A stretch of 64,000 bases of DNA from Clostridia bacterium (GTDB lineage: Bacteria > Bacillota > Clostridia > Christensenellales > UBA1242): the NCBI GenBank assembly GCA_017478185.1, contig JAFVEA010000009.1, positions 261,264-325,263 on the forward strand, given 5' to 3'. The notes under the pieces were generated by a model that saw nothing but the letters and a program-made list of their open reading frames with translations, had not been told where the DNA came from and searched no databases. Of this stretch, positions 3,533-47,545 are shown piece by piece; the stretch's first letter is position 1, and each line of letters begins with the position of its first letter. A program made the translations under genes and the position numbers.

Positions 3533-3582
3533 GCTTATTTGGGCTAAGTATATGTAAAGTTTTGATTTGTTTAGAAATTACT

Positions 3583-3645
3583 CATATTTGTTTGGTTTTT
3601 GTAAGGATAAAGTTTCTGGTTTTTCTGCGATTCTTACTATAGAAT
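3583..3645 (+). promoter_or_regulatory. promoter-like element copy C (CATATTTGTTTGGTTTTTGT ... AAAGTTTCT-N22-TAGAAT)
   Basis: The 20-mer is identical to the reverse complement of 1893-1912. It lies upstream of the 3828-9959 operon. Confidence 0.4.
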
Positions 3646-27304: not shown

Positions 27305-27500
27305 CTTACCAAGGTGGTGCTCTACCCCTGAGCCACAGTAGCATACGATAAAAATATTAAATTGTGAAAGTTAGACCTAGTGGCTTACCAAGGTGGTGCT
27401 CTACCCCTGAGCCACAGTAGCATACGATAAAAATATTAAGTTGTGAAAGTTAGACCTAATGGCTTACCAAGGTGGTGCTCTACCCCTGAGCCACAGTAGC
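27305..27500 (-). repeat. three tandem 79-bp units, each containing the 5' ~38 nt of a second tRNA-Thr(GGT)-type gene truncated in the anticodon loop
   Basis: The reverse complement is GCTACTGTGGCTCAGGGGTAGAGCACCACCTTGGTAAG at 27342-27305, 27421-27384 and 27500-27463. No matching 3' half follows any copy. Confidence 0.8.
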
Positions 27501-27805
27501 ATAATAAATTATAAATTTATATTTTTATCTTAGGTCGCTTTTATATGATAATATAAAAGAATAAAAAAGTCAATTATATTTTAATTATTTAATACTTTTG
27601 AATTAATAAGTGTGAAAATTTGCGAAAAATTTTAAAAAGTTTTTATAAATAAAATACTTTTTAGTTGATATATTTCTTGTTTTTTTAATATAATCCTTCT
27701 AATGCGACTAAAAGTATGATTATGGATGTTAAAATTATATAAAACATAAAGAGATAAGTCAAGAGAAAGAAAAAAGGGCAGCGATTGCCCTTTTTTGCAT
27801 GGTCT

Positions 27806-30437: not shown

Positions 30438-30525
30438 GGACAGATGGTCGAGTGGTTTAAGGCACACGCTTGGAAAGCGTGCGATGTGAAAGCATCCGGA
30501 GGTTCGAATCCTCTTCTGTCCGCCA
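30438..30525 (+). tRNA. tRNA-Ser (anticodon GGA)
   Basis: Class II tRNA with a long variable arm, anticodon arm CACGC-TTGGAAA-GCGTG, CCA encoded. Confidence 0.85.
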
Positions 30526-30737
30526 ATAAAATTCAGCTAAGGCAAAGAGGATTCGAACCCAAGGGTTCCCACCGCAAACGATGTTTGCTTTCTGGCCGGG
30601 TGAAGCCTTTGGCGTTCACCCCGCTTTAGCTAAAACAGCCCACTGGGCTGTATTTTTAACGCAAAGCGCCTCTTCTGTCCGCCAGTAAAGTTAAGCTAAG
30701 GCGAGGAGGATTCGAACCCAAGGGTTCCCACCGCAAA
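30510..30737 (+). repeat. direct ~69-nt duplication of the tRNA-Ser 3' end plus downstream sequence
   Basis: CCTCTTCTGTCCGCCA...GCTAAGGC.A.GAGGATTCGAACCCAAGGGTTCCCACCGCAAA at 30510-30578 and 30669-30737. Confidence 0.75.
30635..30657 (+). terminator. Rho-independent terminator inside the duplicated interval
   Basis: ACAGCCC-ACT-GGGCTGT followed by ATTTTT. Confidence 0.6.
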
Positions 30738-30802
30738 TTTTGTTTATCAACAAAAATAATAATAGTATTTTTGCTTATTTTTGTTTTTAGGAGGAAATAT
30801 AA

Positions 30803-31486
30803 ATGTTAATTGAAAATGAAATATTTTTAAGATGTGACAAAGAAGATATCGTTAATGGAGTGGTTACCATTCCAGAAGGTGTTTTAGAGATTGGAGAAAA
30901 TGTTTTTAGAGAGCGAGAAGATATACAAAAAGTTGTTTTGCCAGAAGGAATGAAAAAAATAGGATTTTTTTCTTTTTATAGATGCAAAAATTTAACTGAA
31001 ATAAATTTGCCAGAGAGCATTAGAGAAATTGAGCCGGTTGCTTTTTCGGGGTGTGGAAAGTTAAAAAACATTAAGTTACCCAAAAATTTAAAGAGCTTGG
31101 GTGATAGCAGTTTTGACTGCACTGCAATAGAGCAAATTGAAGTTCCAAATGTTAACGTTATTTTAGAAGGAACTTTTGCTGGTTGCAAAAATTTAAAGGA
31201 AGTAAAACTTAACGATAATATAGAAGATATTTGCTTTTCTGCGTTTGTGGGTTGTGAAAAATTGGAATCAATTAAATTTCCAGAAAATTTAAAAAAGATT
31301 GAATTTCAAGCATTTAAGGAGTGTAAAAGCTTAACAAAAATTAAAATCCCAAAAAATGTGCAAGAAATTGAATATGAAGCCTTTGCTGATTGCACAAATT
31401 TAACAAAAATAATAATACCCAAAAATGTTAAAATTGGAGAAGATTGTTTTAAGAATTGCCAAATATCATCTTATGAGGAATATTAG
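30803..31486 (+). CDS. BspA-type leucine-rich-repeat protein (no signal peptide)
   Basis: Repeated I-x-I/L-P-x-x-V/L-x-x-I-x-x-x-A-F-x-x-C-x-x-L units. Confidence 0.75.
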   Translation: MLIENEIFLRCDKEDIVNGVVTIPEGVLEIGENVFREREDIQKVVLPEGMKKIGFFSFYRCKNLTEINLPESIREIEPVAFSGCGKLKNIKLPKNLKSLGDSSFDCTAIEQIEVPNVNVILEGTFAGCKNLKEVKLNDNIEDICFSAFVGCEKLESIKFPENLKKIEFQAFKECKSLTKIKIPKNVQEIEYEAFADCTNLTKIIIPKNVKIGEDCFKNCQISSYEEY

Positions 31487-32966: not shown

Positions 32967-33221
32967 GAGATTCTCACGTCGGCTACTAAAGTGCCTCCTT
33001 AAGAATGCCTTGAGGCGAAAGCCGAAAGTTTGGTGCTGCGCTGCCCGCTTTGAACTGATTTTTAAATCGCCAATCTAGCAATGTTACACTTTTAACAAAA
33101 GCAATATGAGATTCTCACGCTTCGTGCCTCTGGCACTACGCTCAGAATGACACATCACCACTAGTCATTGCGAGCGAAGCGTGGCAATCTCTATTTTTTT
33201 CATACAATTTATAACATCACC
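32967..33221. repeat. dispersed composite palindromic repeat, copy R1
   Basis: Modules GAGATTCTCACG-hairpin-CTCAGAATGAC, GTCATTGCGAGCGAAGCGTGGCAATCTCT, AATGCCTTGAGGCGAAAGCCGAAAG, and terminal TTCATACAATTTATAACATCACC. Confidence 0.75.
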
Positions 33222-34213: not shown

Positions 34214-34307
34214 TAGTTTAAGTGTTAAAAAACAGAGAAATAGAAAGTATTTTTCTGTTTTTTTTATTTATTTTTTAACTACCCCTATTGACTCAGGTGC
34301 GGGGGAG

Positions 34308-34380
34308 TGGTATTATGACACCGATAACACAACAATTATAGAAAAAGTTGTTTCTGCTTAAAAAATGTTTAAATTTCGGG
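34308..34380 (+). pseudogene. orphan 3'-terminal fragment of an LRR-lipoprotein paralog
   Basis: A 73-nt stretch identical to 36141-36213, the last 17 codons plus stop and 3' UTR of the gene ending at 36194. Confidence 0.7.
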
Positions 34381-34559
34381 ATACTAGTTTAATTATTAAA
34401 CAAAATTAGATAAAAAATAAGAAAAGATAAATTTTTATCAAATATTTGTCGCCAATTTGTTATGAAAAACTCATAAAAAGTTATTTATAAGAATTTTTTA
34501 TATGCCAAAAACTTTGCTAAAAAATAGCAAAGTTTTTTTAAATTTTTTGCTTTCAGTTA

Positions 34560-34591
34560 TTGACACTAGGGGGGGGGGGTAATGGTATAAT
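34560..34591 (+). promoter_or_regulatory. promoter with an 11-G homopolymer in the spacer (TTGACA - 20 nt - TGgTATAAT)
   Basis: TTGACACTAG(11)TAATGGTATAAT. G-run at 34569-34579. Confidence 0.6.
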
Positions 34592-34655
34592 AAAAATGGC
34601 TGTTAAAAATGGGCTTAGCAGCAAAAAATAATAAAAAAGGAAAAAGGTGAAAAGA

Positions 34656-36194
34656 ATGAACAAAACAAAACATTTAAAAACATTGTTTTTGTCTGTTGTT
34701 TTTATGGTTGTAATATTTTTTTGTGGCTTTGTTTTTTCAGCTTGTGACAACAATCCAAAAGACGACACGCAAACAATAGATAACACACAACAAACAACAG
34801 ATGATGAGCAAACAAAAGACGACACACAAACAACAGATGATGAGCAAACAGTTTACACAATAACTTTTGAAACGGATTCTGGAAGCGCTTGTGAGCAATT
34901 AAGCGTAAATAGTGGCCAGTCTTTAAATGAAGCAAATTTAAGTTTGCAAACACCAGAAAAAACTGGTTACACTTTTGCTGGGTGGTTTGTTGATAGCGAA
35001 AAAACTCAAGAATTTAATTTAAACATAAAAATAACACAAAACCAAACACTTTATGCAAAGTGGGATGTTAATCAATATACAATAACTTACATTTCAAATA
35101 TTGCAGGCGAAGAATTTACTAACACAATAACTCAAGATTATGGAACAGTTATAGATATTCCCGATTCACCTAAAGAAGGTTATATGTTTGGGGGATGGTA
35201 TGCAGATAAAAGTTTTAAACTTAGTTTAGTAAACAAAACAATGCCAGCAGACAACCTAACACTTTATGCAAATTGGGTTGATGATAACTTAGATTACATA
35301 TACAAAGATGGTTATTATCGTTATTATGAGGTTAAAGTTAATGAAACGCATCAAAATTGCACATCAGTAACAATTCCGAGCACATATATGGGGTTTCCAA
35401 TAATAGCAATATGTGATGATGCATTTAAAGATTGTTCTAGTTTAACAAGTATAACAATTCCAGATAGTGTGAGAATGATTGGTGAATCTGCATTTTTGAA
35501 CTGTAGTTCTTTAACAAGTATAGTTATCCCAAGTGATGTAAGTAAGATATGTGATGCAACCTTTGCTTATTGTAACAGCTTGACAAGCATAACCATTCCA
35601 AATAGTGTTACTAGAATTGGAAATTATGCGTTTAATGATTGCAGGGGTTTAACAAATATAACAATTCCAAGTAGTGTAACAAGTATAGACAATGATGCGT
35701 TTAGTGGTTGTAGTGATTTGAAAAGTATAACTTTTGCCGAGGGTTCTAAGCTAACAACAATTGGTCAGAGAGCTTTTGAAGTTTGCACAAGTTTAACAAG
35801 TATAACAATTCCAACTAGTGTAACAACGATAGACCGGCTTGCATTTTATGGCAGTGGCTTAGAAAGCATAACTTTTGCCGAGGGTTCTAAACTAACAACA
35901 ATTGGTCAGAGCGCTTTTGAAGCTTGCACAAGTTTGACAAGCATAACCCTTCCAGCAAGTGTAACCAGTATAGGCGATAGAGCATTTTATAATTGCTCTA
36001 ATTTAGAAAAAGTTTATTACACTGGAACAGAAACTCAAAAAGCAAACATAAATATAGATGAGCGTAACACTCCTTTAACCAATGCCACATGGTATTACTT
36101 CACAGAAAATGGAGCAGATGAAACAGCAGCTGGAAATTGGTGGTATTATGACACCGATAACACAACAATTATAGAAAAAGTTGTTTCTGCTTAA
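34656..36194 (+). CDS. surface lipoprotein with T/D/Q-rich linker, Listeria-Bacteroides (Flg_new) repeats and BspA-type LRRs
   Basis: Lipobox VFSAC. YTITFETDSG...GYTFAGWF repeats, then LTSITIP-x-SV-x-x-I-x-x-x-AF LRR units. Confidence 0.8.
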   Translation: MNKTKHLKTLFLSVVFMVVIFFCGFVFSACDNNPKDDTQTIDNTQQTTDDEQTKDDTQTTDDEQTVYTITFETDSGSACEQLSVNSGQSLNEANLSLQTPEKTGYTFAGWFVDSEKTQEFNLNIKITQNQTLYAKWDVNQYTITYISNIAGEEFTNTITQDYGTVIDIPDSPKEGYMFGGWYADKSFKLSLVNKTMPADNLTLYANWVDDNLDYIYKDGYYRYYEVKVNETHQNCTSVTIPSTYMGFPIIAICDDAFKDCSSLTSITIPDSVRMIGESAFLNCSSLTSIVIPSDVSKICDATFAYCNSLTSITIPNSVTRIGNYAFNDCRGLTNITIPSSVTSIDNDAFSGCSDLKSITFAEGSKLTTIGQRAFEVCTSLTSITIPTSVTTIDRLAFYGSGLESITFAEGSKLTTIGQSAFEACTSLTSITLPASVTSIGDRAFYNCSNLEKVYYTGTETQKANINIDERNTPLTNATWYYFTENGADETAAGNWWYYDTDNTTIIEKVVSA

Positions 36195-36275
36195 AAAATG
36201 TTTTTAAAATGAAAAGGTTTATTGCAATTTAAATAACTTTATGATATACTCTAAAAGATAAAAGGGTGTTAGATT

Positions 36276-37601: not shown

Positions 37602-37729
37602 ACTGGTGTTATTTTTAGCGGAAATGTTTGTTGTTTTTGGTAGCAAAGTTATTTTTGTTCATTCTTAAGGAAGCAAGAGGCTTGTTCACCTCACACCATA
37701 CCAAGAGAAAAGATTTGTTTTTATCTTTA

Positions 37730-38060
37730 TCATTCTGAGGAGGCACGATGTGCCGACGTGAGAATCTCTTGCCGTGCGCGAGAGTCTCAAGTTTTTTATG
37801 CAAAGAGATTGCCACAGCCCTAAAGGGCTTCGCAAAGACAAAGAGAAAGCGCCAAACAGTTGAGATTGCCACGCAAGGTAAAACCTTGCTCGCAATGCCT
37901 TGAGGCGAAAGCCGAAAGCTTGGCGCTGAACCTCTCACTTTGAGCCACTTTTTTAAGCGCCAAACAGAGAATAAACCGAAGCCCTCCCAAAAACAGGCAA
38001 AGTGTCATTCTGAGCAAAACTTGTTTTGCGTGAGAATCTCTTACAGTGCGCGAGAATCAC
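37730..38060. repeat. dispersed composite palindromic repeat, copy R2 (largest)
   Basis: Two CATTCTGAG-hairpin-CGTGAGAATCTC units, two AGAGATTGCCAC-hairpin-TCGCAA(T/A)G units, and AATGCCTTGAGGCGAAAGCCGAAAG. Confidence 0.75.
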
Positions 38061-38136
38061 ATTTTTTCTGCTATCGTTTTTTATTTCATCCCCAAAAAAC
38101 TTAATAAAAAAATTTTAGAAAAGTGCTTAAAATTAT

Positions 38137-38167
38137 TTGACTAGGGGGGGGGGTATTATGTTAAAAT
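38137..38167 (+). promoter_or_regulatory. promoter with a 10-G homopolymer in the spacer (TTGACT - 19 nt - TGtTAAAAT)
   Basis: TTGACTAG(10)TATTATGTTAAAAT. G-run at 38144-38153. Confidence 0.55.
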
Positions 38168-38216
38168 AAACACGAAAGTATGAAATTGGTCATACATAAG
38201 AACGGGGGGAAATTTT

Positions 38217-39113
38217 ATGACAAAATTAAAATCTTTAAATTATTTGTGGCTTTTATTAATTATTCCAATTATGTTTTTGTTTGTTGGTTGTGGCACAGAC
38301 AACAGCAAATCACAGCTAAACCAAACAGCAACTTGCCAAACTCAAACTGAAAGTGCCTACACATCCGAAGGCGCAGGCGAGGCTTACACCGCAAAAGTAA
38401 CAACAGATGAAACAAGCGGAGAAGTTTCAAACAACTTTTCAAAAGGCTATCGCATGACAATGAAAATGAATATGCTTGGCAGTATTGAAATGAATGCTAT
38501 TTTTGTTGATAACAATATGGCAATAAAAATGAAAATGGATATGGATTTAAGTGCTTTTGGTGATTTAACATCAGATGAGGCAAGTGCTGAAGATACATCA
38601 GCAGAAATATATATGTGGAAAAAAGATAACACATTATATATGAGTTCTGAAGGAAAGGATGAAAAAGGAAACACTCAAAAAACTTCTGTAAAATACACTA
38701 TGACAGCAGAACAATTGGAAGGATTTTTAAAATCTTCTAAAGTTCGAGCTTATTCAGTTGCAGATGTTTTAGATTGTGTAAAAAACATAGATAATGAAAA
38801 TATCACAATAAAAGTAGCTGGAGAAAATAGCTTTAAAATAGAGTTTAGGGGTTTGGGTTTAGATGCATTTGATTTATTTGATCCAATGGAACAAGCGGCT
38901 GTGCCAATGGATGCTGAGCAAACTTTTGCTGCAGATATTTATGTTAACTTTAACTCAAACAAAACAATAAACTCAATAAAAGCGGTTTATAATATGACTA
39001 GTGGAGAAACAACAACAACCGTGTTTGAACTTACAATGAGTGAATATAATGGTTCAATCACATTCCCAAAAGATTCAGACTTTAGCGCAGCTGATCCTAA
39101 CACTTTGGCTTAA
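38217..39113 (+). CDS. lipoprotein, function unknown
   Basis: Signal peptide plus lipobox LFVGC. Confidence 0.75.
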   Translation: MTKLKSLNYLWLLLIIPIMFLFVGCGTDNSKSQLNQTATCQTQTESAYTSEGAGEAYTAKVTTDETSGEVSNNFSKGYRMTMKMNMLGSIEMNAIFVDNNMAIKMKMDMDLSAFGDLTSDEASAEDTSAEIYMWKKDNTLYMSSEGKDEKGNTQKTSVKYTMTAEQLEGFLKSSKVRAYSVADVLDCVKNIDNENITIKVAGENSFKIEFRGLGLDAFDLFDPMEQAAVPMDAEQTFAADIYVNFNSNKTINSIKAVYNMTSGETTTTVFELTMSEYNGSITFPKDSDFSAADPNTLA

Positions 39114-47426: not shown

Positions 47427-47545
47427 GTGGCGTTATAAATTGTATGAAATAAGTAAGATAGAGATTGCCACACTTTTCTTGCAATGCCTTGATATGGCAG
47501 CCGAAAGGCATTCTGAGGAGACACATTGTGCCGATGTGAAAATTT
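47427..47545. repeat. dispersed composite palindromic repeat, copy R4 (inverted orientation)
   Basis: GGCGTTATAAATTGTATGAAA, AGAGATTGCCAC...TTGCAATGCC and CATTCTGAGG...GATGTGAAAAT. Confidence 0.7.

Follow-up and report, generated by a model that had tools for sequence, protein, structure and literature searches.

The question raised by this locus is whether a run of 11 G residues lying between the -35 element of a promoter and its -10 could, through changes in its length, vary the expression of the surface LRR lipoprotein gene that follows it. The locus forms part of a 64,000-nt stretch of DNA (henceforth referred to as 'the window'), and the features of its two G-tract loci all lie on the + strand. 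The original prediction had described a -35 hexamer and an extended -10 element separated by 20 nt that include the 11-G run, and every coordinate and length that it gave proved correct in the sequence: the hexamer TTGACA occupies 34560-34565, the extended -10 TGgTATAAT occupies 34583-34591 (TGg at 34583-34585 and TATAAT at 34586-34591), and the 20-nt spacer (34566-34585) reads CTA-G11-TAATGG, with the G run (henceforth 'tract 1') at 34569-34579. A terminator-like hairpin with a 13-bp stem and a T tail (34507-34537) ends 22 nt 5' of the -35 hexamer and would insulate the LRR gene against read-through. Since this terminator lies directly 5' of the promoter, and since a promoter scan between tract 1 and the ATG at 34656 found nothing better or comparable, the LRR gene appears to depend on the G11 promoter, in line with the promoter context that had been claimed for it.

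The LRR gene (34656-36194) encodes 512 aa when read from the ATG at 34656, which is the most likely start (the ORF lister gives a GTG at 34647), and its SD sequence is AGGTGA (34645-34650). As expected from the original prediction, the product is a lipobox protein with BspA-type LRRs, in which a signal peptide and the lipobox FSAC are followed by an acidic TDDEQT-rich linker, two copies of Flg_new (Listeria-Bacteroides repeats) and BspA-type LRR_5 (PF13306; E = 4e-64, 214.5 bits against a gathering cut-off of 27.7). The protein matches the solved cell-surface LRR structures 4gt6, 6mlx (TpLRR) and 4cp6 (PcpA), and it shares LRR_5 with BspA-like LRR proteins such as T. pallidum TpLRR and S. pneumoniae PcpA, but differs from these in being predicted to be lipid-anchored through its lipobox and in carrying the two Flg_new copies. 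When homologues of the LRR protein were searched for, matches of a generic BspA type came up by the thousand, but no orthologue besides the 99%-identical P0005, and no close orthologue was found outside its own species cluster. A homologue with 41% identity (P0011, on contig L138) is without a G tract. In L138 itself, which derives from another low-GC organism, positions 3578-3609 hold TTGACA, 20 nt of (TAA)n and TATAAT before a Flg_new lipoprotein gene; this spacer may be a trinucleotide version of a spacer-length switch, as the loss of one unit would bring it to 17 nt. The window also encodes a second BspA-type LRR_5 protein of 227 aa (30803-31486), which has neither a signal peptide nor a G-tract promoter.

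Between the LRR promoter and the terminator of a bPH-domain gene lies a remnant of a paralogue: the 64 nt at 34307-34370 duplicate without any difference the LRR gene's 3' end and stop codon (36140-36203), and the open frame of the remnant extends slightly 5' of 34307, so that approximately the 30 last codons are represented (34270-34370). This arrangement suggests the footprint of a tandem duplication followed by a deletion, or of a cassette exchange. A candidate promoter at 34288-34316 (TTGACT-17-TATTAT) falls within this coding remnant and was dropped for that reason.

The base composition of the 64-kb window is 30% G+C (G 17%, C 13%), and tract 1 is one of just two runs of more than 6 G residues in it, the other being a G10 run at 38144-38153 (henceforth 'tract 2'); C runs nowhere reach a length of 6. 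The 10-G word GGGGGGGGGG is matched 3 times against an expectation of 0.01 from 100 dinucleotide-preserving shuffles of the window, which represents a ~300-fold excess, and both G11 and G10 are longer than the approximately 8 residues from which G/C homopolymers are held to be hypermutable. Moreover, among the 53 ORFs of at least 110 aa only two are clear lipoprotein genes, and these are exactly the two that lie behind the long G runs. The G tracts are non-random. With regard to spacing, all five clean promoters of the form TTGACN-x-TGNTANAAT in the window that have no G tract show x = 17, as against x = 20 for tract 1 and x = 19 for tract 2, and a standard promoter scan also yields promoters with 17 nt, for example 5' of the tRNA-Asn gene. 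One more match to TTGACN-x-TGNTANAAT, with 14 nt, looks like chance. The uniform 17-nt spacing of the promoters without a G tract backs the claim that slippage would move the spacer relative to a 17-nt optimum.

The second locus lies 3.6 kb from tract 1 and has the same design. Its -35 hexamer TTGACT (38137-38142) and its extended -10 TGtTAAAAT (38159-38167) enclose a 19-nt spacer (38143-38161) in which G10 is flanked by A and TATTA. The gene behind it (38217-39113), which starts 50 nt 3' of the promoter, encodes a 298-aa protein with a signal peptide and the lipobox FVGC. As the lipobox pattern [LVIF]-x-[AGS]-C is present in both proteins (...GFVFSAC/DNN in the LRR protein and ...MFLFVGC/GTD in the 298-aa protein), both are predicted lipoproteins. 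The 298-aa protein belongs to no Pfam family, and its structural model (pLDDT 56) gave only weak fold matches (TM no higher than 0.4). Three homologues of it were found at 52-56% identity, and in two of these (contigs L008 and L009) the gene lies behind dnaJ. The promoter in L008 and L009 consists of TTGACC, a 17-nt A/T spacer without G residues and TGtTAAACT, and is followed by a hairpin and by the same unusual SD sequence, GGGGGG, that precedes the 298-aa gene in the window (38204-38209). Through these orthologues the true -10 of tract 2 is recognized and the promoter assignment is fixed; a TATTAT at 38154-38159, which would leave a spacer of 11 nt, was dropped as the -10 because TGtTAAAAT is the element conserved in the orthologues. 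Since the -35 is kept at exactly 17 nt in the G-free orthologues, tract 2 is a lineage-specific replacement, by which the spacer has become too long by 2 nt.

The leader of the 298-aa gene contains a hairpin (38178-38195; GTATGA-6 nt-TCATAC) that is conserved in the orthologues, where it reads ATATGA-6 nt-TCATAT (~5955-5975 in L008/L009), its outer pair having changed in a compensatory manner; such a 5' structure may have a stabilising or a regulatory role. Rfam searches of the window detected tRNAs only and no riboswitch or leader family at either G-tract locus. Directly 5' of the tract-2 promoter lies one copy (37680-38070) of an intergenic repeat element that is also present at 32993-33073 and 47472-47507; the element is GC-richer than its surroundings, contains the internal repeats CGTGAGAATCTCTTGC...GCGCGAGA and has no Rfam match.

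Tract length was then compared among related assemblies. Exact-protein look-ups of the LRR protein (with the ATG start, with the GTG start and as P0125) gave no match, and the related contigs were obtained through neighbouring genes and the cluster member P0126. All the related contigs recovered share ~99.9% identity with the window and come from a few related datasets, probably ruminant gut metagenomes judging from the record names, so that variation is sparsely sampled. Contig L001 agrees with the window in having G11 at tract 1, and contig L133 (ERZ27256832) has G10. Over 2,050 nt, L133 differs from the window by 0 substitutions and lacks only one G and one unit of a 36-nt in-frame tandem repeat, which is present in 2.2 copies (34769-34850) in the linker after the lipobox of the LRR protein. 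As L133 is one 36-nt unit short, the surface protein varies in size; and as L133 carries tract and repeat differences without any substitution, slippage-type changes outnumber substitutions at the tract-1 locus. A third difference affects the A run at 34650-34653, between the SD sequence and the ATG, which is A4 in the window and A3 in L001. We thus found three slippage-type polymorphisms (the G run, the 36-nt repeat and the A run) on almost substitution-free haplotypes. The length of tract 1, whose constancy the original prediction had named as a refuting result, therefore does not appear to be invariant, although G10 and G11 were both read from the consensus of short-read assemblies, in which homopolymers are prone to error, and their difference is as such suggestive of a real polymorphism, not decisive. 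Tract 2 was G10 in six of six assemblies, representing at least five samples. The contigs of four other assemblies either start (L001, L133) or end (L134, L135) at 34500-34550, where the terminator hairpin lies and no more than 70 nt 5' of tract 1, which could reflect poor read-through or a drop in coverage, heterogeneity of the tract or structural variation. A scan of JGI metagenomes with a pattern specific to both loci (G run of at least 5) gave only two unrelated chance matches.

To place the two loci in a wider context, we scanned the GTDB species-representative genomes for the pattern TTGAC-N2-5-G>=8-N3-12-TGNTAWAAT. The scan returned at least 129 promoters of the G-tract design in at least 119 stretches, compared to a chance expectation of a few tens for the whole collection (an estimate that assumes uniform base composition). 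Approximately half of the matches listed are from gut MAGs of 24-32% G+C labelled Bacilli or Clostridia, the hosts of which are rabbit, human, mouse, chicken and goat; the matches listed also include isolate genomes, for example Treponema ruminis RU1 and C. jejuni, and do not include the window's own species. Several of the MAGs among the matches listed hold multiple loci, some with tandem paralogues that each have their own tract. In the low-GC loci among the matches listed, 62 of the 69 G runs of at least 7 fit the strict pattern, and of the remaining seven, which the scan pattern had not selected, six lie in a TTGAC-Gn-TGnTAnnAT context. An N-terminal hydrophobic segment is encoded by 48 of the 55 ORFs downstream of the low-GC tracts (87%), compared to 63 of the 219 other ORFs of those loci (Fisher p = 1e-15), and by 30 of 60 downstream ORFs compared to 110 of 520 others in the higher-GC loci, again among the matches listed. 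A Pfam sample of the downstream ORFs among the matches listed contained LRR/DUF285, Flg_new and prepilin-type N-termini, and many ORFs without a family. Overall, the presence of the same design at a second lipoprotein gene, the G-free orthologues with 17 nt and the recurrence in gut MAGs strengthen the proposal that the design is that of a surface-antigen switch.

Differences in tract length were also evident within this collection. Locus L121 contains tracts of G11, G10 and G10 on identical flanks and a further G11 copy with a one-base flank difference, loci L017 (G9) and L020 (G11) have identical promoter flanks in the same MAG, and locus L081 is G11 where its relatives are G10. In one promoter family, G10 was found in 9 of 10 copies across five MAGs, and the modal state in the low-GC MAGs among the matches listed is G10 with a 20-nt spacer (35 of 63). 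Variants of G5-G7 were not found in the low-GC loci fetched, the originating scan pattern having demanded a G run of at least 8. Three loci from Hadza gut Bacilli MAGs (L121, L103 and L075) are arrays of 2-4 tandem paralogues, which are ~450 aa in length, have an N-terminal anchor (MVKIMELKKYKDNNYKR...) and match no Pfam family, and every one of which lies behind the same promoter, TTGACAGTC-G10/11-TATCTGTTATAAT; these arrays look like a multigene family of variable surface proteins.

We propose, at a probability of roughly 70%, that the two loci of the window have classical SSR contingency promoters, that is, slippage-driven expression switches for surface lipoproteins. Both G tracts would be hypermutable SSRs in sigma-A-type promoters, where they separate the -35 from the extended -10, one promoter driving the BspA-type LRR/Listeria-Bacteroides-repeat protein and the other the 298-aa lipoprotein, and replication slippage would add or remove G residues and so shift the length of the spacer. 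A tract of G8 at either locus would give 17 nt, the spacing of all other strong promoters in the window, whereas the G11 and G10 states, at 20 and 19 nt, would misalign the -35 and leave only weak transcription driven by the extended -10. As spacers of 19-20 nt exceed the canonical 17 nt, the sequenced states are predicted to be low or OFF, and the population would be mostly low or OFF for each gene, with rare variants of higher expression. In the gut, such a contingency device would permit bet-hedging in the display of exposed antigens, adhesins or receptors for phage. We infer the TSS, predicted to lie ~7 nt 3' of 34591 and of 38167, the response of transcription to tract length, the rate and reversibility of switching and the selective agent. 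TGn extended -10 elements can dispense with a -35. Because an extended -10 is able to work in this way, changes in the tract might only modulate output, which may make the switch a volume control and not a strict ON/OFF device. Both promoters are 2-3 slips from the predicted optimum, which is odd for a one-step switch; it is possible that the G10 mode is set by mutational bias and that ON variants are rare, and less likely that the G tracts themselves shift the optimal spacer length.

The possibility that the tracts are prone to slippage but that the promoters run on their extended -10 elements, so that changes in tract length would have a small, graded effect and no meaningful ON/OFF consequence, deserves the most weight among the alternatives and is in our view unlikely. 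It draws on the TGn element in both promoters, on the modal 20-nt spacer in relatives, which under a strict model would make every such gene OFF, and on the porA promoter, where the effect is graded and not ON/OFF (PMC3639595); however, TTGAC is kept beside six of the seven extra G runs that lie outside the selection of the search pattern, and the -35 is retained at exactly 17 nt in the G-free orthologues, both of which argue that the -35 matters, and every other strong promoter in the window keeps 17 nt. We judge it less probable still that the tracts are static, as a regulator binding site or an element of promoter-DNA structure, with the differences in length being neutral noise or assembly error. 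Tracts of 10-11 G residues are intrinsically hypermutable in every system tested, lengths differ between copies with identical flanks (L133 and the window, L121, L017/L020), and neither a candidate regulator nor a conserved flanking operator was seen at the loci. The constancy of G10, at tract 2 in all six assemblies and in nine of the ten copies of one promoter family from five MAGs, does favour static tracts, and a fixed design of G10 and 20 nt might itself be under selection, but mutational bias is by itself able to produce a modal length, as it does in C. jejuni (PMC3401435).

That the tracts are artefacts of two-colour Illumina poly-G or of a mis-join is very improbable. The four contigs of other assemblies that begin or end no more than 70 nt 5' of tract 1 would be consistent with such an artefact, but the tracts are internal to long contigs, their flanks are unique and match in independent assemblies from several samples, both sit in a precise promoter geometry, and the same design is present at more than 100 loci, including isolate genomes. 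An intramolecular G-quadruplex was also considered and dropped, as a single G run cannot form one.

The proposed spacer-length switch has well-characterized counterparts, and the original prediction had drawn a parallel with the Mycoplasma vlp and the Neisseria and Haemophilus promoters. The parallel concerns mechanism and not lineage: TGA is a stop codon in the ORFs of the window, a peptidoglycan amidase (Amidase_3 + PG_binding) is encoded, and the best named relatives of NrdD are from Clostridia MAGs, at 77%, with Maliibacterium, Ruminococcaceae and Oscillospiraceae next at 68-69%. On these three grounds a Mollicute origin was dropped, and the host is a walled Firmicute, probably related to Clostridia, an affiliation held with low confidence as it derives from one gene. 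As a walled Firmicute with the standard genetic code, the host can be compared to Mycoplasma, Neisseria and Haemophilus in mechanism only.

The closest likeness is to Neisseria meningitidis porA (also opc and fetA), known for poly-G/poly-C phase variation of their promoters, in which a G tract of ~9-11 nt lies in the spacer between -35 and -10, slips by 1-2 nt and controls a surface protein to which antibody has access, and in which a change from 11G to 10G lowers expression and allows antibody escape (PMC3639595). In contrast to porA, the promoters in the window are Firmicute promoters with an extended -10, and tract 1 precedes an LRR lipoprotein gene and not a porin gene; G11 represents the optimal spacing in porA, whereas here it corresponds to 20 nt, 3 beyond the canonical 17; and there is no sequence homology between porA and the window loci. 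The lipoprotein genes vlp of M. hyorhinis, maa2 of M. arthritidis and vmm of M. mycoides, for which spacer-length switching is established, resemble the window loci in that repeat indels in the spacer act on lipoprotein genes (PMC2268961), and vlp further resembles them in the size variation of its coding region by in-frame tandem repeats (here the 36-nt repeat) and in having several genes that each carry their own switch. However, the repeats in vlp, maa2 and vmm are poly-A or TA and not poly-G, and the proteins of the window are unrelated to Vlp, containing LRR_5 and Flg_new instead. None of the hallmarks of a Vlp-type system (a Mollicute host, a poly-A tract and a Vlp-family protein) was found, so that the window loci are similar to it in working and are not members of it. 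Campylobacter jejuni, likewise a gut bacterium with AT-rich DNA, has few long G/C runs, nearly all of them contingency loci, and their modal lengths of 9-10 are set by mutational bias (PMC3401435); its tracts are mostly intragenic frameshift switches, unlike the promoter spacers of the window and the MAG loci. The modal tract in C. jejuni is G9, with G8 being insertion-biased and G11 deletion-biased (PMC3401435). Conversely, the poly-T tract of the M. agalactiae vpma promoter has no role in switching (PMC2268961), which indicates that a homopolymer beside a promoter is no proof of phase variation.

The mechanism that we propose is therefore already known, and what appears to be new is the lineage and the gene class, the host being a walled Firmicute and not a mycoplasma, to which the present analysis adds the second locus, the tract polymorphism and the wide recurrence in uncultured gut Firmicutes. 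The literature that our searches returned on phase variation in gut commensals centres on invertible promoters (invertons), and we found in it no SSR promoter switch for uncultured gut Firmicutes. Nearly every long G run in the low-GC loci among the matches listed is part of a promoter before a surface-protein gene, often in arrays of paralogues. That poly-G spacers may be the main device of phase variation, as yet undescribed, in many uncultured gut Firmicutes of low GC (MAGs labelled Clostridia or Bacilli) is a broader proposal that we put forward tentatively and would ourselves doubt somewhat more than we would credit it. Under this proposal, the conserved resting state (G10 with a spacer of 19-20 nt), 2-3 slips away from 17 nt, would mean either that these genomes keep a stock of surface proteins that is OFF by default and is turned ON rarely and in several steps, or that the optimal length of a G-tract spacer is non-canonical for these RNA polymerases. 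If the tracts do switch expression, surface LRR lipoproteins, proteins resembling pilins and further exposed proteins would be heterogeneous within clonal populations of many uncultured gut and rumen Firmicutes, with a bearing on escape from IgA, escape from phage and adhesion; metagenomic assemblies would show the modal state alone and would tend to break at such tracts; and, as the design is easily searchable, candidate variable surface antigens could be listed directly in organisms that are unculturable.

Further features of the window concern mobile DNA. The region 1-27000 encodes a tyrosine integrase, PcfJ/PcfK-like proteins, a MutS_I-domain fusion and a DNA methyltransferase, and the first ~27 kb of the window is probably an integrated mobile element. 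A separate Dam-family methyltransferase and an adjacent HNH protein are encoded at 51.7-54.7 kb. Tandem copies of tRNA 3' halves are present near tRNA-Thr (79 nt x 3) and beside tRNA-Ser (77 nt x 2), at 27305-27541 and 30510-30745, and look like stacked attachment sites.
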